Virus record (IMG/VR): IMGVR_UViG_3300020182_000023
Location: 14,697 to 78,696 of that record
Source: a virus
DNA: 64,000 nucleotides
Strand: one strand, 5' to 3'
In this document: in pieces, positions 3,301 to 42,965 of the stretch
How positions within the stretch are numbered: position 1 is the first letter of the stretch
How the letters are laid out: each line of letters starts with the position of its first letter
Program-made: the position numbers and the translations under genes
Notes under the pieces: model-generated
Told to the model about the DNA's origin: nothing
What the model saw: only the letters and a program-made list of their open reading frames with translations
Databases searched by the model: none

Positions 3301-4177
3301 GGTCTGCTAATACATTCTTGTTATAAGTATTCATTTCTGATATAGGCGACCAAGCACCATACATATCATCGTCAAATACCCATCTGTACTTAAACTGAAA
3401 ATACTTACCAAAAAGTGAGTTATTGCTTGTCCCAGTATTAGCCCCATTTATCAATATCTGATGTAATGGCTGTAACGGGCATAAATCAAAATACTCTGCT
3501 TGTAATGCAGTAGGGTATTCAGACCCAATTAATTTATCTACGTTAATATATTTAGGCTCGTTATGATTGTCAGTCCAAAACAATAACGTTTGACCATCTC
3601 TTATTAATATAGCTGAATCTATGTAATTATTCTCTTGAAAGTTTAAATAGTTGCCTATCTCCTTCCAAATTAATGAGTTTTTTTCGGGGTCTTTTTCTCC
3701 TGCATAACTAGCGGATGTAAACCCAACTAAACAAATATAATATTTAGTCTCTGAAGATATACCGCCAATTCTTAATACTACATCACCAGCGGTGTAAGAT
3801 GTTGCGTATGTAGGTGTAGCCCCGCCTAATGTACCTACTATTGAGTAAAAGTTATCTCTAACTAATTCTCTAAGAGTTTCATCTAAATAGCTATAATAAA
3901 GAATTATATGCTTCCCTTCGCTACTCCATAGGAATATATAAGTTCTTTGGTTTTCTTCGTCATCTTGTATCTTAACGCATTTATATCTACCACCAGACGG
4001 TAATGTATAACTTACTTCAAGTGTACTCTTTACATTTTCTAAGGCGTTATCATTCCCCCCATCAGTACTTGATACATAAAAGTTCTTAGCCTCTATGTAC
4101 TCACCTTCTTTTAGGTATCTAGGGTCGGAATCTTGGTTCATTCCAAGATAAAAAAAACGTCTATCTTCTTGTACCAT
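359..4177 (-). CDS. Tail stabilisation/muzzle protein, crAss-like podovirus type
   Basis: 1272 aa; N-terminal GMNQDSDPRYLKEGEY..A.N and LFWTDNHNEPKYIN, FKYRWVFDD..Y..WSP, YGISDNPES motifs typical of this family; follows the ring genes. Confidence 0.75.
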   Translation of the reverse strand: MVQEDRRFFYLGMNQDSDPRYLKEGEYIEAKNFYVSSTDGGNDNALENVKSTLEVSYTLPSGGRYKCVKIQDDEENQRTYIFLWSSEGKHIILYYSYLDETLRELVRDNFYSIVGTLGGATPTYATSYTAGDVVLRIGGISSETKYYICLVGFTSASYAGEKDPEKNSLIWKEIGNYLNFQENNYIDSAILIRDGQTLLFWTDNHNEPKYINVDKLIGSEYPTALQAEYFDLCPLQPLHQILINGANTGTSNNSLFGKYFQFKYRWVFDDDMYGAWSPISEMNTYNKNVLADPTTSYGGLRLRVYRNSAIVNRLKKIEVAYRDCRNGNSGDWYKFADIDGSDISASNEYTFTKFNTASDNWGVTGGGVQYESFYEVIFDNNSAKVPLDQNEANQLYSFVPKKAGTLAITEDNRIVFGDIDEGLDVSSVDLDMISSYRYYAPRPTAPSASYQKTLKTGAKYKWGIRYSDGKGRLSTVLTNIDQEVETDWYDSIVTSPSVIVSLNMRISHAPPSWAKTWQPCYLPIGIDYEGSTPLAYQFMAGVDTPAASGGQSLISLQIPRTFNNDNEDSQFPLSFNDEYYVRGVYDFSASSYWAHYDESKVIETLDSGEIASVTIISGGSGFTANPTIKAVGGGGSGATFTTAIGSGSIITVTITNSGNGYTSFPTLIVEGDGSGASVVVDKMNFKKYIKINSGQWNTQPTVRDILEVYKKSTDSNNALWREYGYPCKIGYDANGDLAHLGLDSLITTLSGFGDPNAPSQNQVISPPADLVYEPADTGDMYLSYTFLDYDANNFPPSKTIPSGGRTAVGGAFFLQVPFADIRVPSRSISLKRPLVALEDSRLPELKTTLRWSDPLVQNTNINGLGFFYDINFRELKNEYGTIRKIFSENEYLKVLFDRKMGLLPMGRTEINSLDGNNFVGKTTDVFGTPRYSVSDYGISDNPESLSYFGGASMFVDRSKNTVLISSGLEVKPISDAGMRFFFDEVLIRSQRLINKPVIQSVYDKEFDTFILSINNKSTSTGTVVTTPPTTVVITLTEAQVTELDLSEDIVLKTFTAAPFVTETVSSGDWSKLGGGTTIQATVTSSGTYNPAVDVEVIQGQQYVLNYSPKNNKWMSFFDYKGDVFGSARSRLCSSKDGKFYLHNSPNVSSYGNFYGAQHESYITIPFAAEPTNTKNARALEIESTDTNFYLDSGTNERGQSTSLINGDFEEKEGRQWANILMDENTPLVGGITNPITQGDLMIGTYFIAKINNTATSLVKVFSSTLRYIKSFI

Positions 4178-4941
4178 TAGCTTTTAGTAAATGCGCTGCT
4201 CTTTCTAGTCTGATTCATCATTTGGTTTTGCGTCATTGAACTGAATCTTTCAGCCATATGATAGCAAGCCCAAGTGAACTTATGCTCTAAATCTTGTATA
4301 ACACCTCTTGGTGTGCTTTTTCTTCTTCTCTTACTAAACAATTCTATACCCGCCTTAATAGGCTCCCTCATAAACTGATGAACTAGAAACTCTCCGTTTA
4401 TTGTAGATATATCTTGAAGGTATATTATCATATACTTGTCAGTAGTGTTTAAGCCTCCATTTACGTTGATAAATCCTCTTTCGTAGTCTATACTCCACTC
4501 ACCATAAACAACGTGTCCATTGCTACCGAAATTGCCTCCTAAGTTCTCTCCGTGTCTGCTTACAGATAGGCTGTTGTTTGAATCTCCGTAACCGTTTGAT
4601 TCAGCTAACCTTCCCGTAGAGGTTTGTCTTTCTGTATTGCCTTCACTATCAGTTCCTCTTGCGTTGGCGATTTTATTACCCAACCCTAATGAAATGAAGT
4701 GGTTTGCGCTATTTACAATTCCTAAGTCTATAATTCTTACGCAACCCGCAGGAATTACTATTTGGTCGTTAGAGTTTAACGTAACAAACTTACTTACAGG
4801 TATGCCCGTAAAATCATACTCCATCTCCCTTAATGCTTGTATGGCAAAGTCTAGGTAAAAAGATAAATCGTGTGTAGTCTTTTTGCCTTGCTCTCTAAGG
4901 TAGTCTTTTACTATGGATAATATGGGTAAGTCTCTATTCAT
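4177..4941 (-). CDS. Putative tail ring/adaptor protein
   Basis: 254 aa; position next to muzzle; size matches crAss-like ring proteins. Confidence 0.55.
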   Translation of the reverse strand: MNRDLPILSIVKDYLREQGKKTTHDLSFYLDFAIQALREMEYDFTGIPVSKFVTLNSNDQIVIPAGCVRIIDLGIVNSANHFISLGLGNKIANARGTDSEGNTERQTSTGRLAESNGYGDSNNSLSVSRHGENLGGNFGSNGHVVYGEWSIDYERGFINVNGGLNTTDKYMIIYLQDISTINGEFLVHQFMREPIKAGIELFSKRRRKSTPRGVIQDLEHKFTWACYHMAERFSSMTQNQMMNQTRKSSAFTKS

Positions 4942-5561
4942 TATGAATCTGCTAGGTTGTTATCGCTTAAATCTTCTGGAATGTCTTTTGTCAATACATA
5001 TTCTTGAACAGCCATATTAATTATATCCAACTCTAGGTTAGGCGGAAATGGAAAATAATCATCATCCGCTATATCTTCGCTGCTAGATATTGAGTGTACA
5101 TCTAATAATGTTTCTTCTGTCTGTTTTGCTGTAAAGTATATTCTATCTCCACTTAACCAATATCCCGTATTACCTTCTAACTCTTTTGAGGCAGAACCAT
5201 TAAATAAAGAATTAAATGTAGATGGCACTTGGTAGTATTCAAATGTGTTATTACAAGGTGTTATCTGATATATACCCATATTCTTAGGGAGTACTAACGG
5301 CTTAAATGGTAGCTGTAAATACCATCTGTTAGTTCTAGTGTCTTTTGTAGGGGATAATTGCTCATAAGTAGATATACAGCCTTCCCAAACCATATCTTCC
5401 ATTAAGTCATTACTCCACGCTTGCCAAGCGAAATCTGCAACAACTTTATCTCTAGCATTACCAACAGCAGCTACCATTTCCCTAAGAGATGTCTTAGCGT
5501 CTTGCGTTAGCTTTGGGTAAAGCTTCTTTAATGCTCTATATGCTAAATCTACTTTTGTCAT
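4941..5561 (-). CDS. Putative tail ring protein
   Basis: 206 aa; C-terminal FPFPPNLELDIINMAV pattern of ring/tail tubular proteins; translationally coupled. Confidence 0.55.
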   Translation of the reverse strand: MTKVDLAYRALKKLYPKLTQDAKTSLREMVAAVGNARDKVVADFAWQAWSNDLMEDMVWEGCISTYEQLSPTKDTRTNRWYLQLPFKPLVLPKNMGIYQITPCNNTFEYYQVPSTFNSLFNGSASKELEGNTGYWLSGDRIYFTAKQTEETLLDVHSISSSEDIADDDYFPFPPNLELDIINMAVQEYVLTKDIPEDLSDNNLADS

Positions 5562-22302: not shown

Positions 22303-22348
22303 CACCAAGCTAAGAAGCGTTTTAATGCTTTCTTAGCGGCTGTTATGC
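22297..22348 (+). repeat. attC-like hairpin A (short type)
   Basis: TAAC-accaa-gctaagaagcgtt..aatgctttcttagc-ggct-GTTATGC. Confidence 0.65.
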
Positions 22349-22418
22349 AACGTTTTAATGTTGCAATTTTTAACCCTTATTAACATTAACCAATAGATAA
22401 TATTAATACATTTGAATT

Positions 22419-22850
22419 ATGATACAAATAGATAATATAGAAATAGACCCCACTGCATTAGTAGTGTTAGGAGGGTTTGCATTAGGGATGATTATAGCCC
22501 CTTTTGATTCCGCATTAATAAAAAGAGAATACAGGCTAGAATGGCTGTATCACACAGCTAAGTTTATGCTTATGTTCTTGTTAGGTGGTGCGTTATTACA
22601 CCACGTTCTACCTAAAGATGGATACTTCGTTCCAAGACTTATAGCTTGCTCATTATCATACAGCATTTCCTTTGACTTGTTTTTAAACTTTTTAAGAGGC
22701 AAGGAGATATTTTACATAGGACAAACTGCTTTTCTTGATAAGATGGCTAGAAAGTACCTTAAAACGGGTTTAAACTATATTTTCGTAAGGTTATTAGCTG
22801 TGTTTTTGATTGGAGTAGGAATAGTAATACATATTTTATTAAATAATTAA
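22419..22850 (+). CDS. Multi-pass membrane protein
   Basis: 143 aa with about 4 hydrophobic segments; FD..LN.LRGK..FYIG.TA.LDK motif. Confidence 0.6.
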   Translation: MIQIDNIEIDPTALVVLGGFALGMIIAPFDSALIKREYRLEWLYHTAKFMLMFLLGGALLHHVLPKDGYFVPRLIACSLSYSISFDLFLNFLRGKEIFYIGQTAFLDKMARKYLKTGLNYIFVRLLAVFLIGVGIVIHILLNN

Positions 22851-23367: not shown

Positions 23368-24018
23368 ATGTATAAATATATTATAATGGAATATAAGATA
23401 GAAAAACAAGCTAAAGGCACTCGAATACTTTTCGGGGATGAGGTAAGAGATAGATACACGCTATTAAATAAAATGATAGCTACCGTTGAGTCTTACGGGT
23501 TTCAAGGAATACAACTGCCTAGCATAGAGCCGTCTGAAATATACATAGACAAAGCAGGGAGAGAAGTGCTTAATCAAATGTGGGTGTTTCCAGATAAAAA
23601 AGGAAGGAATGTATGCTTACGCCCAGAGGCAACGGCTACCGTTCAGCTAATCGCTAATCATTTCTGGCAAGCTAAAAAAGAAATAAGAGTTTGGTATTTT
23701 GAGAAATGCTGGAGATACGAAAAACCGCAAAGGGGCAGATACAGAGAATTTTGGCAGTTCGGTTGCGAAGTAATAAACCCATCTACTGATTTAATAAAAG
23801 AAGAATTAATAGACATATCTAAAGAACTTTGTGAACTTCAAACAAAGGATATAACGATAGATTATTCCGTAACAAGGGGATTGGGCTATTATACAGATAA
23901 AGGCTTTGAATTACGCTGTAAGCAACTAGGAGCGCAAGAACAGATATGCGGAGGTGGTTCTTATGATAGAGGAATTGGGTTTGCCATTGGGTTTGATAGA
24001 TTAATGCTTTGTAAATAA
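23368..24018 (+). CDS. Minimal histidyl-tRNA-synthetase-like catalytic domain (likely start 23386)
   Basis: KGTR, LRPEATA, motif 2 WRYEKPQRGRYREFWQFGCE, His loop RGLGYYT, GAQ.QICGGG.YD, motif 3 GIGFAIGFDRL; no insertion or anticodon-binding domain. Confidence 0.85.
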   Translation: MYKYIIMEYKIEKQAKGTRILFGDEVRDRYTLLNKMIATVESYGFQGIQLPSIEPSEIYIDKAGREVLNQMWVFPDKKGRNVCLRPEATATVQLIANHFWQAKKEIRVWYFEKCWRYEKPQRGRYREFWQFGCEVINPSTDLIKEELIDISKELCELQTKDITIDYSVTRGLGYYTDKGFELRCKQLGAQEQICGGGSYDRGIGFAIGFDRLMLCK

Positions 24019-24024
24019 ATAATT

Positions 24025-24255
24025 ATGAAAACAAAATTGATTAGAAACAGTACGCTCCAAGACTTAATGGATGCTGCGGAGTATTCTTCTTACTCAGAAA
24101 CACTAGAAGGTGTTAAACGGGCTAAAATAGGCTTAGATATATACGAGAAAGTAAAGGGTGGCTGGAAGCAAATCAGCGATTCGGGTATTATACCTAAGAA
24201 GTGTAACGTTATATCTCTTGATGCTAATGGCGCAAGCAGAATGAAGCGGAGGTAA
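24025..24255 (+). CDS. Hypothetical protein; stop overlaps attC-like site B
   Basis: 76 aa; TAA lies within TAAC. Confidence 0.5.
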   Translation: MKTKLIRNSTLQDLMDAAEYSSYSETLEGVKRAKIGLDIYEKVKGGWKQISDSGIIPKKCNVISLDANGASRMKRR

Positions 24256-24344
24256 CGGTTTGTGTATGAGTAGTGTGGCTTTGCTCTTATTTTCAACTTA
24301 CAGATAAACTTATTTAGCCACATTACTTATACACTTTTTTATAG
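24250..24344 (+). repeat. attC-like hairpin B (long type, degenerate 3' core)
   Basis: TAAC-ggttt-gtgtatgagtagtgtggct...agccacattacttatacac-tt-TTTATAGGTA (GTT expected). Confidence 0.55.
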
Positions 24345-24364
24345 GTATGTAAAATTTACGGAAT

Positions 24365-24511
24365 ATGAATAAAGAAAATAATTATTGGAAAGGAATAATG
24401 GTTGGATTTGCAGTAAGCACAATTGTTTGGTGTACTTTATGGGCATTTGTTATTGGAAAAATAGATAAGGTTCACAAACAAGAACTTGATTATATAATAG
24501 AAAAACACTAA
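24365..24511 (+). CDS. 48-aa membrane protein, cassette between sites B and C
   Basis: MNKENNYWKGIMVGFAVSTIVWCTLWAFVIGKIDKVHKQELDYIIEKH; flanks ttataggtatgtaaaatttac and gtaaattttattacctataa are near-complementary. Confidence 0.55.
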   Translation: MNKENNYWKGIMVGFAVSTIVWCTLWAFVIGKIDKVHKQELDYIIEKH

Positions 24512-24537
24512 ACAAAGTAGGTAGTAAATTTTATTAC

Positions 24538-24590
24538 CTATAACACCCGTCTAAGAAACGCTTTAATGTTTCTTTTGGCGGCTGTTAGAT
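24538..24590 (+). repeat. attC-like hairpin C (short type)
   Basis: ctaTAAC-acc-cgtctaagaaacg..tgtttcttttggcg-gct-GTTAGAT. Confidence 0.6.
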
Positions 24591-24654
24591 AAAGTTTAAC
24601 AACCATTTTACCCGACAGGGGAAATTGGTTAAGGAACATTAATAGATTTGAATT

Positions 24655-25029
24655 ATGAAACTACACAAAGACATATTATACTCCGTAGGAGATGAAATTG
24701 AGATAGATAACATTAAATACACCATAGAACTCGCAGGATGGGGTAAAATACGACTACATAAGAAATGCTGTGGTGATATGTCCGCTGCCAAAGAAGTAGA
24801 TGACGTAACAGCTATACGGGGCTTAGATATAATAATAGCACTTAATGAAGAAGGTGCTACTGAAGAGGTAGAGGAAATTAAAAATAACTTAGAATGTCAT
24901 TTTAATGAAATTGAGTGTAAATTTAAATCTGAAGAATCTAACCTTAATGACAAAATCCGCATATTAGAAGCGCAGAATAAAGATTTAAAGAATGAACTAG
25001 AGGATGATAAGTCTTGGTGGATATGGTAG
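24655..25029 (+). CDS. Hypothetical coiled-coil protein
   Basis: 124 aa after a TAGATTTG box. Confidence 0.55.
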   Translation: MKLHKDILYSVGDEIEIDNIKYTIELAGWGKIRLHKKCCGDMSAAKEVDDVTAIRGLDIIIALNEEGATEEVEEIKNNLECHFNEIECKFKSEESNLNDKIRILEAQNKDLKNELEDDKSWWIW

Positions 25030-26581: not shown

Positions 26582-27679
26582 CTATTCTGCTTTATTACCG
26601 TGACCACCAATACCATTCTCTTTCTTGTATTTTGAAATCTTAATCGCTATGTTAGATTGGGATGTTCCTAACTTCTCTGCTATTTTCCATTGTGGCATTG
26701 TCTTATTCATTTCGTACAATTCTTTATAGTCGTATTTTCTGTTTCTTTTATCTAAGCCGTTAAGCCTAGCGCCAAATCTTTTTATAGCTGTTTCAACAGC
26801 CCCGTCACCACAATTATAATACTCAGTTAGCATTTTTAGCGTGTACCTCTTTTCTACTAAGCTTAAAAACTCATCTTTATCTGCTATACCATAGGGCTTA
26901 ACATAAATATCTTCACTTCTAAGCTCACCATACTTAATAATAATCCTTTTAACAGCACCAACACTAATCTGATACTTATCAGAAATAAACTCTATGCTAT
27001 TACCAGATTCGTAGGACTTAGAAAAAACCTTACCCCTACAATCTTTGTAGTTGATATTTCGAGTTATCCGTACAATAGTAGGAGGAGATACATTAAACAT
27101 ATCAGCTATTTCCGTATTACTAACCAACTCTTCAGAATAAAGCCTTTTAATTTCCCGCTGCTCATCATAGGAGAAATTAGTAAACTTATCCTTAATAACC
27201 CTATTACTCCTACCATCAAATACGCCTAGTTCAACCAACAGTGATTTAATAACAGCGCTTGATACATTATACTGATTAGCTATATAAGTTATAGGGTAAG
27301 ACTCATACATATCAACTATATTCTTCTTGTCAGAATCACTAAACGAATACTTAGTCCCAGATAAGTAACCAGCATCTTTCTGCCTTTTTCTATTTTCCTC
27401 TGGAGTAACCCACTCTAAGTTACTAGAGGCATTATTAAGCCTATTAAAGTCCTTATGGTCAACTTCGTGTCTATCGCTAGGAGGTAGCCCATTAAAAGCT
27501 AGACAAACAAGTCTATGTACATACTGAGAGTGCCTGCCCTTTTCATTATGCCTAACTCCAACGGATAAGTACTTACCACCCTTTAATTGAGGCTTTAGTA
27601 CATTACCTCTCTTCTTATTATAAACATTTCCTAATTCATCTACTTGGTACTTATCGTACATTGGTATATTCTTTTTCAT
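26582..27679 (-). CDS. HNH homing endonuclease with multiple C-terminal HTH repeats
   Basis: YQVDELGNV, YVHRLVCLAF, EVDHKDFNRLNNASSNLEWVT..EN, then repeated IA..YNVS HTHs. Confidence 0.8.
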   Translation of the reverse strand: MKKNIPMYDKYQVDELGNVYNKKRGNVLKPQLKGGKYLSVGVRHNEKGRHSQYVHRLVCLAFNGLPPSDRHEVDHKDFNRLNNASSNLEWVTPEENRKRQKDAGYLSGTKYSFSDSDKKNIVDMYESYPITYIANQYNVSSAVIKSLLVELGVFDGRSNRVIKDKFTNFSYDEQREIKRLYSEELVSNTEIADMFNVSPPTIVRITRNINYKDCRGKVFSKSYESGNSIEFISDKYQISVGAVKRIIIKYGELRSEDIYVKPYGIADKDEFLSLVEKRYTLKMLTEYYNCGDGAVETAIKRFGARLNGLDKRNRKYDYKELYEMNKTMPQWKIAEKLGTSQSNIAIKISKYKKENGIGGHGNKAE

Positions 27680-42019: not shown

Positions 42020-42070
42020 CATATAGTTTCAGTAGAATAAGTTCGTTTCATAATTGCCCTAGTGGATGGT
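42016..42070 (+). pseudogene. 5' remnant of the PD-(D/E)XK exonuclease gene
   Basis: MTYSFSRISSFHNCPSGW parallels MKETIYSWSRVNYTCLAAW of the gene at 42962. Confidence 0.55.
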
Positions 42071-42092
42071 TTATTTTTATTTATATTTGTAT

Positions 42093-42173
42093 AGTAGAGT
42101 TACGGCTACTTTTAAATATTTTTACAAAGCCCTGTCAAGAGTAGAGTCCGTAACCTCGAAATTGATGGGGTTT
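42093..42173 (+). ncRNA. Putative kissing-loop leader RNA, copy 3
   Basis: agtag-aGTTACGG-ctact; aagccctgtcaa.AGTA-gag-tCCGTAAC-ctc-GAA.ttgatggggttt; after TATATTTG (42082-42089). Confidence 0.6.
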
Positions 42174-42179
42174 ATTTTT

Positions 42180-42965
42180 ATGCAAGAGTTTACAAAAGAA
42201 GAATTAAAAAACGAAGAGTGGAGAGATGTAGTTGGATACGAAGGATTGTATCTGGTTAGTGATTTAGGGAGAGTAAAAAGCAGTTACATTGTTAGTAGGG
42301 CTAAAGATGGAATCATTAAAATGGGGAGCGATAAGAATGGGTATTGCAGTTTCGCTTTATGGAAAGACAAATCACAAATTACCAAGAATGGACATCGTGT
42401 AGTCGCTAAAGCATTTTTACCTAATCCAAAAAACAAACCGTGCGTGAATCATATAGATGGTGATAAAAGGAATAATCGAACAACCAACCTAGAATGGGTT
42501 ACATATAAAGAAAATTCCCGACACGCGATTGAAACTGGTCTGTATAGACACCCTGAAATGAAGAAGGGGTACGACTCGCCACACAGTAAAGAGGTGTATC
42601 AGCTTACGGTAGAGGGTGTTTTTATAAAAGCGTTTGGTTCATCTATCGAGGCGGCTATAAGTTTATTTGGAGATATTAATAGAGGCTCTATTATACGCAA
42701 ATGCTGTAGAGATAAATCAAGTTCTTATAAGGGTTTTCTATGGAGATACCCTAAAGACGTTAATAAAGATGCGATTTCAAAACATAAAAGAATAATACAA
42801 CAGTTTTCTTTAGAGGGGATTCTTATTAAAGAGTATACTGGTACTAGTGCAGCCCAAAAAGCCACTGGAGTCTTGGCTACTGGTATAGGGAACAATGCAA
42901 ACGGGAGGACAAATACCGCTGGGGGGTTTGTCTGGAAATATAAATATGATTACAATTCAATATGA
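42180..42965 (+). CDS. NUMOD4-HNH-NUMOD1 homing endonuclease (start revised from 42066)
   Basis: EEWRDVVGYEGLYLVSDLGRVKS, HRVVAKAFLPNP..KPCVNHIDGDKRNN...NLEW, two NUMOD1-like repeats. Confidence 0.85.
   Translation: MQEFTKEELKNEEWRDVVGYEGLYLVSDLGRVKSSYIVSRAKDGIIKMGSDKNGYCSFALWKDKSQITKNGHRVVAKAFLPNPKNKPCVNHIDGDKRNNRTTNLEWVTYKENSRHAIETGLYRHPEMKKGYDSPHSKEVYQLTVEGVFIKAFGSSIEAAISLFGDINRGSIIRKCCRDKSSSYKGFLWRYPKDVNKDAISKHKRIIQQFSLEGILIKEYTGTSAAQKATGVLATGIGNNANGRTNTAGGFVWKYKYDYNSI

Follow-up and report, generated by a model that had tools for sequence, protein, structure and literature searches.

The window, by which we mean the whole stretch of 64,000 nucleotides of viral DNA that was analysed, contains a gene whose product is confirmed, by sequence and predicted structure, to be the complete catalytic core of a histidyl-tRNA synthetase (HisRS) of class II, without the insertion and anticodon-binding domains. 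This protein, called mini-HisRS below, belongs to a large and apparently undescribed family, whose genes are accessory ones carried by phages, by megaplasmids and by a small number of proteobacteria, and which is not the housekeeping enzyme. We estimate at about 0.65 the probability that mini-HisRS is a functional, stand-alone histidyl-tRNA ligase that is blind to the anticodon and reads only the acceptor stem of its tRNA.

The gene occupies an uninterrupted open reading frame on the plus strand (23368..24018), which in its longest form would encode 216 aa. Because the homologues begin MEYKI and cover 97% of this 216-aa query, translation most likely begins at the second ATG, position 23386, yielding a protein of 210 aa. 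The features of the gene are as follows.

23386..24018, + strand: mini-HisRS coding sequence from the most likely start, 210 aa plus stop (homologues have 207-212 aa and start ME(Y/L)KI)
23368..23385, + strand: six additional in-frame codons after the upstream ATG, probably untranslated (absent from the family consensus)
23506..23532, + strand: class II motif 1 region GIQLPSIEP with Pro45, dimer interface (Pro45 in 53/55 members; aligns with E. coli HisRS motif 1)
23617..23637, + strand: LRPEATA, binding of the histidine alpha-amino group by Glu81 and Thr83 (each in 53/55; aligns with E. coli LRPEGTA)
23707..23769, + strand: motif 2 and its loop (CWRYEKPQRGRYREFWQFGCE; aligns with the E. coli HisRS segment)
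23782..23865, + strand: short helix-linker, residues ~133-160, in place of the ~90-residue HisRS insertion domain (phmmer, AF2, Foldseek)
23872..23892, + strand: HisA loop TRGLGYY with catalytic Arg164 (R164 in 49/55, Y168 in 48/55, Y169 in 50/55; aligns with RGLDYY)
23950..23967, + strand: HisB loop GGGSYD (G190 and G191 above 92%, Y193 in 49/55; aligns with AGGRYD)
23971..24000, + strand: motif 3 GIGFAIGFDR with Arg205 (G196, G198 and R205 each in 53/55; aligns with GFAMGLERL)

All of the motifs quoted in an earlier note on this DNA are present (LRPEATA, WRYEKPQRGRYREFWQFGCE, TRGLGYY, GGGSYD and GIGFAIGFDR), and the protein does end, as stated there, five residues past the arginine of motif 3, with LMLCK. 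Pfam, phmmer and Foldseek also agree with that note in finding a catalytic core without insertion or anticodon-binding domains. Class II motifs 1, 2 and 3 are in place, PF13393 and PF00587 match the protein, and the match to Pfam tRNA-synt_His (1.9e-27) falls into two stretches, at profile positions 8-139 and ~233-287. Both phmmer against the PDB and Foldseek match HisRS, and the absence of the insertion domain is seen in the phmmer alignment, which skips E. coli HisRS residues ~146-236. HGTP_anticodon (PF03129) has no match in the protein or across the whole 78.7-kb record to which the window belongs. Structure prediction, which had been proposed as a check, gave a favourable result: the AF2 model has a pLDDT of 93, contains a single helix (residues 137-149) at the site of the insertion domain and superimposes in Foldseek on the E. 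coli HisRS core (1kmn) with a TMq of 0.90 and an rmsd of ~2.2 Å. Mini-HisRS does not reach the cut-off of the HisRS equivalog TIGR00442 (177.9 bits vs 286.75), because half of the model is missing from it. Its fold, its motifs 1-3, its two histidine loops (HisA, HisB) and the G-1-binding arginines of its motif-2 loop are those of canonical HisRS (class IIa; TIGR00442; PDB 1KMM/1HTT, 4RDX and 1WU7), but it has 210 aa in place of ~420, lacks the ~90-residue insertion and the C-terminal HGTP domain, and carries Gln for Glu64 (T. thermophilus numbering) together with Cys77 and Cys108, which are specific to the family.

Mini-HisRS falls into a single clade that comprises more than 500 proteins, all ~210 aa long. 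A literature search found no paper describing this family, PHROGs and PADLOC hold no family that matches it, and megablast of the mini-HisRS region against GenBank phages returned no match. Same-length homologues under purifying selection, on whose existence the earlier note had made its reading depend, number in the hundreds, and dN/dS for mini-HisRS measured against relatives L010-L013 is 0.03-0.09. Residue conservation was scored over 55 non-redundant members that are less than 70% identical. The residues for His-AMP formation are all kept at about 90% or more, with P45, R110 and R205 conserved in at least 96% of members. Within motif 2, conservation reaches at least 90% for R110, Q115, R120, E121, F122, Q124 and E128 and 87-89% for E112, P114 and R118, and 48 of the 55 members have R or K at position 113. 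These data support the conclusion, at the level of sequence, that mini-HisRS is a natural, selected HisRS reduced to its catalytic core. It had earlier been described as a natural urzyme-like enzyme; natural and core-only it is, but "urzyme-like" is too strong, since the 210 aa make up a whole catalytic domain that includes motifs 1-3 and the two His loops, whereas an aminoacyl-tRNA synthetase urzyme is a minimal core of 120-145 aa that has motifs 1-2, in some cases motif 3 as well, and no specificity loops (PMC3060492).

Half the normal size and the in-frame stops seen in a few bacterial copies are what one might expect if mini-HisRS were a decaying, functionless remnant of a full-length HisRS gene. 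This reading is effectively refuted by the large number of same-length members from which one domain has been precisely excised, by the low dN/dS and the residue conservation, by the confident fold and by the retention of an intein at the active site, which in the relative P0132 lies exactly before the Thr of the RPET motif. One intein excepted, the N- and C-terminal extensions of longer relatives contain no domain.

In the phylogeny against HisRS and HisZ that had also been suggested earlier, the family forms a single clade (SH-aLRT 100) within HisRS, among the archaeal-type enzymes and apart from the HisZ outgroup, the full-length sequences having been chosen as nearest matches. A separate 322-aa HisRS, without the insertion but with an anticodon-binding domain, falls outside this clade. 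HisZ (TIGR00443; PDB 1Z7M) is a HisRS paralogue that likewise lacks the anticodon-binding domain; it has 300-390 aa, retains the insertion region but no longer the catalytic residues, and has HisG as its partner. It is a precedent for a HisRS core turned regulator, PGAP names the bacterial copies of mini-HisRS "ATP phosphoribosyltransferase regulatory subunit", and the dimer interface of motif 1 is retained. Mini-HisRS might on these grounds be a non-catalytic or modulatory subunit, either a HisZ-like regulator or a heterodimer partner that alters the activity of host HisRS through motif 1. We consider this highly improbable. Unlike HisZ, mini-HisRS strongly conserves the catalytic residues; it scores 100.3 bits against the HisZ equivalog TIGR00443, below the cut-off of 271.65, and the tree places it in its own clade. 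Moreover, the bacterial carriers own a separate HisZ-like gene, mini-HisRS being a third paralogue in them, and no hisG was found among the neighbours of the bacterial mini-HisRS genes. Identity with HisZ itself is rejected on the basis of the retained catalytic residues, the TIGR00443 score and the separate clade.

The pattern of conservation also bears on the substrate. In T. thermophilus HisRS, Arg115 and Arg122 hold the 5' phosphate of G-1 and Glu114 binds A76 (PMC4357726). The equivalents of Glu114, Arg115 (as R or K) and Arg122, mapped through the E. coli alignment and that paper, are conserved in the family at about 90% or more. The Gly-Gly pocket for G-1 is partly retained (K/G, then G/D/N), and the equivalent of Glu64, which contacts A76 and is reported to be essential for aminoacylation, is Gln in most members. 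This substitution, the loss of both tRNA-binding add-on domains, the lack of tRNA genes in the window's phage and the solitary position of the gene in most bacterial contexts would all fit an enzyme that activates histidine for a non-tRNA acceptor (a protein, a carrier or a small molecule) or that makes Ap4A, in the manner of EpmA, AsnA and the amino-acid:carrier-protein ligases. We regard this as improbable, since conservation extends to the 5'-phosphate arginines and to the Glu that binds A76, which His-AMP synthesis does not require (PMC4357726), and since the gene is associated specifically with genes for tRNA-His and for a tRNA-His/5'-end enzyme, as described below. Furthermore, no conserved partner gene that might provide another acceptor exists among the viral or bacterial neighbours, and no domain fusion was found besides the intein. 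For the histidylation of proteins or metabolites and the synthesis of Ap4A, both raised in the earlier note, the analysis found no pointer. EpmA/PoxA, GluQRS/YadB, AsnA and the amino-acid:carrier-protein ligases are likewise stand-alone cores without anticodon-binding domains. These truncated synthetase paralogues act on EF-P, tRNA-Asp queuosine, aspartate and carrier proteins and own conserved partner genes, whereas the context of mini-HisRS points to tRNA-His.

From how mini-HisRS is built and folded, how it is conserved and selected, where it stands in the phylogeny and which genes surround it, all of which the analysis shows, we infer the following mechanism for acceptor-stem charging. Mini-HisRS would dimerise via motif 1 and make His-AMP in an unchanged HisRS active site, from which histidine would be passed to tRNA-His. 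The tRNA would be chosen by its acceptor end alone, namely G-1 with its 5' phosphate, C73 and CCA, which the motif-2 loop and a cross-subunit pocket would read, with neither a contact to the anticodon nor a clamp from an insertion domain. HisRS could tolerate such a reduction because tRNA-His identity resides almost wholly in G-1:C73; HisRS accepts microhelices as substrates, and the anticodon counts as a weak determinant (PMC4357726). The earlier suggestion of anticodon-independent charging through G-1:C73 gains comparative support from the conserved motif-2 arginines and from the G-1:C73 tRNA-His genes that neighbour mini-HisRS in huge phages. Loss of the insertion domain, which in HisRS normally clamps the acceptor stem (PMC4357726), could cripple the transfer step, and engineered HisRS catalytic fragments reportedly have activities far below that of the full enzyme (PMC3060492). 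HisRS urzymes, which were built in the laboratory, have 119-145 aa (Li et al. 2011, PMC3060492). The engineered fragments resemble mini-HisRS in being catalytic-core-only, and they retain histidine activation and, in some constructs, tRNA acylation; mini-HisRS differs from them in being natural and selected and in possessing, within 210 aa, a complete active site, with the insertion domain cleanly removed from the protein. The N-terminal catalytic-domain HisRS engineered by Augustine and Francklyn in 1997 is said to comprise ~320 aa with the insertion domain still present.

The viral gene contexts provide a further indication of the substrate. Same-strand tRNA genes lie within 6 kb at 36 of 50 non-redundant viral mini-HisRS loci, and tRNA-His is among them in 24. 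The nearest tRNA is tRNA-His in 10 loci, compared with 3.0 expected (P ~2e-4, a value that overstates independence because the loci are related). G is encoded at position -1 in 28 of the 34 distinct tRNA-His genes at these loci, and wherever the reading included the 3' end, C73 pairs with G-1. The viral loci have no conserved protein neighbour in common. In huge phages the gene sits within tRNA arrays, with a preference for places beside G-1:C73 tRNA-His genes, and in five complete huge phage genomes it is the sole HisRS-type gene, with no anticodon-binding domain near it. In such phages mini-HisRS would be the cognate enzyme of the phage-borne G-1:C73 tRNA-His. Al-Shayeb et al. (2020) described synthetases and tRNA arrays in huge phages of 200-700 kb and proposed that the former charge phage tRNA variants; they counted TIGRFAM-confirmed synthetases, and a domain-less HisRS is not described there (PMC7162821). 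Mini-HisRS differs from these synthetases in falling below the TIGR00442 cut-off and in occurring also in a phage of ~100 kb whose recovered 78.7 kb contain no tRNA gene.

Bacteria have two histidylation systems that do not cross-react with each other, one based on G-1:C73 and the other on A73, U72 and the anticodon, and HisRS of the Rhizobiales type is orthogonal to G-1:C73 tRNA-His (2011, PMC3064791). In Sinorhizobium phage Phosso the mini-HisRS gene lies 276 nt from a G-1:C73 tRNA-His. Within alpha-proteobacterial hosts, mini-HisRS and the phage tRNA-His may therefore form an imported orthogonal pair, since the host HisRS should not charge such tRNAs; if true, this would explain the use of G-1-type tRNA-His by huge phages of these bacteria. 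Some phages of alpha-proteobacterial hosts that carry mini-HisRS and a G-1:C73 tRNA-His carry an A73-type tRNA-His too. The host enzyme of that system gained anticodon dependence, whereas the phage mini-HisRS has lost the anticodon-binding domain entirely.

In bacteria the neighbourhoods are uninformative outside Pleionea, and no protein neighbour is conserved across genera. In Pleionea, mini-HisRS forms a three-gene operon with an AAA_33 kinase and a Thg1-like protein (TLP). Thg1-like genes are present in 14 of 30 mini-HisRS genomes compared with 2 of 299 other Gammaproteobacteria, a contrast whose independence is overstated by relatedness, and in Undibacterium in 9 of 11 compared with 4 of 70, an association that may stem from one clade only. 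Genomes of Hahella, Undibacterium and Massilia that bear mini-HisRS have conserved kinase-TLP pairs, and the mini-HisRS and Thg1-like genes of P. serbica share one megaplasmid contig. Thg1-like genes also occur in 12 of 35 phage records, counted among mini-HisRS records only, and RNA ligases flank the mini-HisRS gene in two phages of 630-640 kb. The operon and the co-occurrence suggest a tRNA-His 5'-end pathway, in which mini-HisRS would work alongside the kinase and the Thg1-like protein as a repair pair. Bacterial TLPs do repair tRNA 5' ends in vitro (PMC3061083).

These findings raise the alternative, nested in the best explanation and not exclusive of it, that mini-HisRS is specifically the charging arm of a mobile system for the maintenance of tRNA-His identity. 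After damage to the tRNA 5' end or its mis-processing, the P-loop kinase would phosphorylate the 5'-OH, the Thg1-like 3'-5' polymerase would restore G+1/G-1 opposite C72/C73, and mini-HisRS would recharge the repaired or atypical tRNA-His. The associations just listed argue for such a role, yet adjacency to the kinase and Thg1-like genes is confined to one genus, the Thg1-like gene is absent from more than half of the mini-HisRS genomes and from the lineage of the window's phage, TLP-positive genomes without mini-HisRS occur, and huge phages gather many tRNA genes anyway. We think it rather unlikely. The earlier idea that anticodon-cleaved tRNA is charged found no pointer; the repair link concerns the tRNA 5' end, and the RNA ligases belong to two huge phages and not to the window's.

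Returning to the acceptor-stem ligase, we tentatively propose a broader picture, in which a natural HisRS of half the usual size, blind to the anticodon and guided solely by the acceptor stem's operational code, would travel on phages and megaplasmids in a portable tRNA-His identity kit, consisting of a G-1:C73 tRNA-His and mini-HisRS with or without the kinase and Thg1-like enzyme. In alpha-proteobacterial hosts this kit would act as an orthogonal pair; elsewhere it might insure the supply of His-tRNA against 5'-end damage or loss of host HisRS during infection. If active, mini-HisRS would to our knowledge be the first natural synthetase family cut to the bare class II catalytic domain yet serving translation. 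It would then allow the idea of an "operational RNA code", in which catalytic domains alone read acceptor stems, to be tested on a living example, and it would be a natural counterpart to the engineered HisRS fragments and urzymes. The family also offers a handle on the physiological role of bacterial Thg1-like proteins, whose role in vivo was open as of 2010 (PMC3061083), and at 630 bp the gene is a very compact candidate for the engineering of orthogonal tRNA/synthetase pairs. Current annotation pipelines either overlook mini-HisRS, whose score does not reach the hisS cut-off, or wrongly name it HisZ.

As for the window's own phage, its record (78.7 kb, 74% complete) contains no tRNA, tmRNA or Rfam family, either in the window or in its entire length, and its lineage lacks Thg1, RNA ligase and any anticodon-binding domain supplied in trans. 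As the record offers no tRNA gene and neither Thg1 nor RNA ligase, the link to tRNA is borrowed from relatives. Promoter and terminator scans of the sequence flanking the gene gave results no better than shuffled sequence. In one metatranscriptome, three read-length contigs cover 23641-24081 only; these may be DNA carry-over or derive from a relative and are not counted as proof of transcription. The phage is marine and its host probably belongs to the Flavobacteriia. In this phage the mini-HisRS gene is a swappable accessory cassette, and there are strains in which 23376-24023 is replaced. Here mini-HisRS would act on the tRNA-His of the host, as an optional accessory function by which His-tRNA stays charged while the infection proceeds.

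The ORF at 23368..24018 (+), which comes from an IMG/VR virus record of 78.7 kb with an estimated completeness of 74%, is uninterrupted and encodes a half-size histidyl-tRNA synthetase (HisRS) that we call, together with its family, mini-HisRS. All the motifs quoted in the earlier note were found in its product, which ends five residues past the motif 3 arginine, as had been described. Homologues are 207-212 aa long and open with ME(Y/L)KI, so translation probably begins at the ATG at 23386 and yields a product of 210 aa. The Pfam tRNA-synt_His match (1.9e-27) is split into two stretches, with profile positions about 140-232 skipped, and the Pfam scan found no anticodon-binding domain in the protein. 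In a phmmer comparison with PDB sequences, residues 40-149 and 152-213 aligned with residues 32-145 and 237-312 of E. coli HisRS; the insertion domain of ~90 residues is cleanly missing and nothing lies past motif 3, in agreement with the earlier claim of a bare catalytic core. Structure prediction, one of the checks proposed in that note, yielded an AlphaFold2 model based on 37 members of the family (pLDDT 93, pTM 0.89), in which the predicted fold is that of the E. coli HisRS catalytic domain (TM 0.90, rmsd about 2.2 A).

Mini-HisRS scores 178 bits against the NCBIfam hisS model (cut-off 287) and 100 bits against that for HisZ, the HisRS-like regulatory subunit of ATP phosphoribosyltransferase (cut-off 272), and is under both. 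A survey of huge phages counted synthetases via TIGRFAM models (PMC7162821), under whose hisS cut-off mini-HisRS falls. We found no description of the family in the open literature and bioRxiv, and no mention of it in a jumbo-phage comparative review; it is new in architecture, in distribution and in its linkages.

When 5.8 billion proteins were searched with a restriction on length, 523 relatives emerged at E<=1e-5, almost all of about 210 aa. Representatives at 50% identity, searched exhaustively, included dozens of separate 195-225 aa clusters intermixed with full-length HisRS. Compared pairwise with four homologues from phages, whose proteins are 78-98% identical to its own, the window gene shows dN/dS values of 0.03-0.09; a value of 0.31 comes from one near-identical pair that differs at only nine nucleotides. 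It is therefore clear that same-length homologues under purifying selection exist; their absence was what the earlier note had named as counting against its proposal. That the gene is a pseudogene is largely excluded, with a negligible probability remaining.

The 37 mini-HisRS sampled for a maximum-likelihood tree group in a single clade with a long stem (SH-aLRT 100), a result that was repeated. The clade is placed within HisRS, beside archaeal-type enzymes, in a sample whose full-length sequences were picked as nearest hits, and HisZ and proteobacterial HisS lie outside this setting. A comparison with HisRS and HisZ had also been suggested, and it sets HisZ apart. A regulatory or HisZ-like role is given very little weight and is largely excluded. 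The NCBI pipeline PGAP names the 209-211 aa members P0071, P0075, P0077, P0081, P0098 and P0108 'ATP phosphoribosyltransferase regulatory subunit' (HisZ); given their conserved catalytic residues and the tree position, this label on bacterial mini-HisRS is very likely a misannotation. One 322-aa HisRS, P0256, from a single metagenome read-assembly, has lost the insertion domain and retains an HGTP anticodon-binding domain; it sits on a long branch outside the clade and represents either an independent loss or an assembly artefact.

Among 55 members with <70% mutual identity, the top-conserved positions coincide exactly with the HisRS active site.

Most conserved positions of mini-HisRS
Motif 1: Pro45
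LRPExT motif: Leu78, Pro80, Glu81, Thr83
Motif 2: Arg110, Glu112, Gln115, Arg118, Arg120, Glu121, Phe122, Gln124, Glu128
HisA loop: Arg164, Tyr168, Tyr169
HisB loop: Gly190, Gly191, Tyr193
Motif 3: Gly196, Gly198, Arg205

A metagenomic member of 564 aa (P0132) is split by a LAGLIDADG intein between ...LAPEY and TAVVQ..., directly before the invariant Thr of the histidine-binding LRPExT motif. Inteins typically occupy sites of this kind in genes that matter. Contacts with tRNA were mapped by alignment to E. coli HisRS and the paper on the T. thermophilus HisRS-tRNA structure. In the latter enzyme Arg115 and Arg122 grip the G-1 5' phosphate, Glu114 binds A76, Arg7 touches the 5' end, Glu64 is reported to be essential and Gly72-Gly73 is a cross-subunit pocket for G-1 (PMC4357726).

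T. thermophilus contacts and their mini-HisRS equivalents
Arg115 and Arg122: R/K113 and R120, kept
Glu114: E112, kept
Arg7: R/K10, kept
Glu64: Gln in most members
Gly72-Gly73: K/G then G/D/N, kept in part

The simplest account of the data is that mini-HisRS is a working histidyl-tRNA ligase that reads the acceptor end only, a prediction to which we assign a probability of about 0.65. It would select tRNA-His by the acceptor end alone and then attach histidine, and its chemistry is presumably that of HisRS. Identity of tRNA-His is dominated by G-1 with its 5' phosphate and by C73, and micro- and minihelices are HisRS substrates (PMC4357726); for these reasons HisRS is the synthetase in which acceptor-only reading is most plausible. 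Transfer of histidine to an acceptor other than tRNA is unlikely, given that the residues specific for tRNA have been retained and that no gene for another partner came to light.

Mini-HisRS is carried by 54 IMG/VR loci and 3 GenBank phages, and many of these are huge phages of 400-640 kb. Same-strand tRNA genes lie <=6 kb from it in 36 of 50 non-redundant loci, and in 24 of the 36 these include tRNA-His(GUG). The nearest tRNA is tRNA-His in 10 loci, whereas the local tRNA composition would predict 3.0 (P about 2e-4), a statistic somewhat inflated by kinship among loci. G is encoded at -1 in 28 of the 34 distinct tRNA-His genes at these loci, and is paired with C73 in those read through the 3' end. 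In these 28 genes (loci L001-L059) G-1 is preceded by A-T in 26 cases and by G-T in 2, so that T at -2 is invariant. Bacterial RNase P favours U just 5' of its cleavage site, and this T is probably a cleavage determinant that leaves G-1 on mature tRNA-His. Some G-1:C73 tRNA-His(GUG) genes close to mini-HisRS, of 87-90 nt, possess a long class II-like variable arm, and a tRNA body of that shape might collide with the anticodon-binding or insertion domain of an ordinary HisRS.

tRNA-His genes with a long variable arm (locus:positions)
L015:5898-5984
L017:1876-1963
L032:4026-4115
L034:3475-3564

Six genes represent a different type of tRNA-His(GUG), one that lacks G-1; five of the six have G1:U72 and A73 and lie amid tRNA-Ser genes.

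tRNA-His genes without G-1 (locus:positions)
L039:6692-6764, G1:U72 and A73
L041:5252-5327, G1:U72 and A73
L046:5275-5348, G1:U72 and A73
L050:4979-5054, G1:U72 and A73
L057:5372-5447, G1:U72 and A73
L038:2244-2320, different position 72, in a general tRNA array

The G1:U72/A73 genes agree with the type found in alpha-proteobacteria and with the 8/4 tRNA-His that Mukai et al. reported in alpha-proteobacterial phages (PMC5389517, PMC3064791). Several phages with a tRNA-His that lacks G-1 also bear a G-1:C73 tRNA-His directly beside mini-HisRS. In Sinorhizobium phage Phosso, mini-HisRS lies 276 nt from a G-1:C73 tRNA-His. Recognition by Rhizobiales-type HisRS relies on A73, U72 and the anticodon, and E. 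coli tRNA is no substrate for Caulobacter HisRS (PMC3064791). From these properties we infer that mini-HisRS and its G-1:C73 tRNA-His would form a self-sufficient pair in Rhizobiales-type hosts.

In five huge phage genomes (97-100% complete) mini-HisRS is the only HisRS-type gene, and anticodon-binding domains occur solely in ORFs of 375-440 aa >100 kb away. In LR756502 (642 kb) and LR745206 (635 kb) it is flanked by PF09414 RNA ligase genes, two per phage, near large tRNA arrays; three of these four ORFs were domain-scanned and the fourth, L003:3869-4582, was assigned from its likeness to L002:3902-4615.

RNA ligase genes (locus:positions)
L002:2355-3020 and 3902-4615
L003:3869-4582 and 4808-5458

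A Thg1-like protein (TLP, a tRNA 5'-end 3'-5' polymerase) is encoded in 12 of 35 mini-HisRS phage records. About 30 bacterial species genomes hold a mini-HisRS copy (66-98% identical), among them Hahella, Undibacterium, Massilia, Pleionea, Cellvibrionaceae and Pseudomonas megaplasmids of roughly 1 Mb; a normal HisS is present alongside it, as is, in most cases, a HisZ-like gene. The neighbours vary from genus to genus, with the exception of two Pleionea species, in which mini-HisRS, an AAA_33 P-loop kinase and a TLP are directly consecutive. An overlapping kinase-TLP gene pair is likewise conserved at other places in the genomes of Hahella (L163), Undibacterium (L165) and Massilia (L166).

Pleionea operon: mini-HisRS, 148-aa kinase, 250-aa TLP (locus:positions)
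L085:6001-7829
L091:6001-7831

Genomes with a TLP, with and without mini-HisRS (Fisher test)
Bacterial genomes with mini-HisRS versus sampled Gammaproteobacteria without: 14/30 versus 2/299, P 1e-14
One count per lineage: about 7/19 versus 2/299, P 3e-8
Within Undibacterium: 9/11 versus 4/70, P 1.4e-7

Two genomes of the background sample thus have a TLP without mini-HisRS, and the Undibacterium association may reflect a single clade. Bacterial TLPs mend tRNA 5' ends in vitro (PMC3061083). An attractive extension of acceptor-end charging, based on the co-occurrence and on the one operon in Pleionea, is that mini-HisRS may be the charging arm of a system that maintains the tRNA-His 5' end. Some Undibacterium copies are decaying: mini-HisRS has an in-frame stop in genomes G412 and G065, the TLP ORF is shortened in G061, G384 and G412, and both genes are damaged in G412.

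In the window phage, the minus strand encodes terminase, portal and structural genes, and mini-HisRS lies in a plus-strand early/replication block, whose other genes include a primase-helicase, an exonuclease, HNH endonucleases and small ORFs. The terminase shares about 28% identity with its counterparts in phages of Flavobacterium, Cellulophaga and Maribacter, and the stretch is present in marine metagenomes from at least 15 studies, from which a host among marine Flavobacteriia is likely, if weakly so. No tRNA, Thg1-like, RNA ligase or anticodon-binding domain genes were found in the 78.7 kb record; our guess is that a phage with no tRNA gene in its recovered record might gain added capacity for charging, or a safeguard should host HisRS function be lost. 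The RNA evidence, three read-length contigs from one library, was judged insufficient for expression of mini-HisRS.

Two phage contigs carry a 78-80% identical mini-HisRS, and across 6 kb to each side of it they share no further gene with the window. In an oyster-metagenome contig with flanks 90-95% similar, 23375 is joined to 24024 via 585 unrelated letters, so that in this related strain the gene has been swapped out precisely at its borders. Mini-HisRS is thus a mobile, optional cassette, yet strongly constrained where present. Other features of the window (positions)

22311-22425 and 24552-24661: intergenic repeat of roughly 110 nt (hairpin and promoter-like AT-rich box), the two copies enclosing the small-gene block that holds mini-HisRS
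24253-24540: cassette with a 48-aa ORF, missing from one metagenome contig (joint 24252->24541) and from contig L010
26582-27679 (-): free-standing HNH homing-endonuclease gene
42066-42965 (+): free-standing HNH homing-endonuclease gene

One of the two HNH genes carries NUMOD4 and several HTH repeats, and that at 26582-27679 (-) is missing from the near-identical contig L010.
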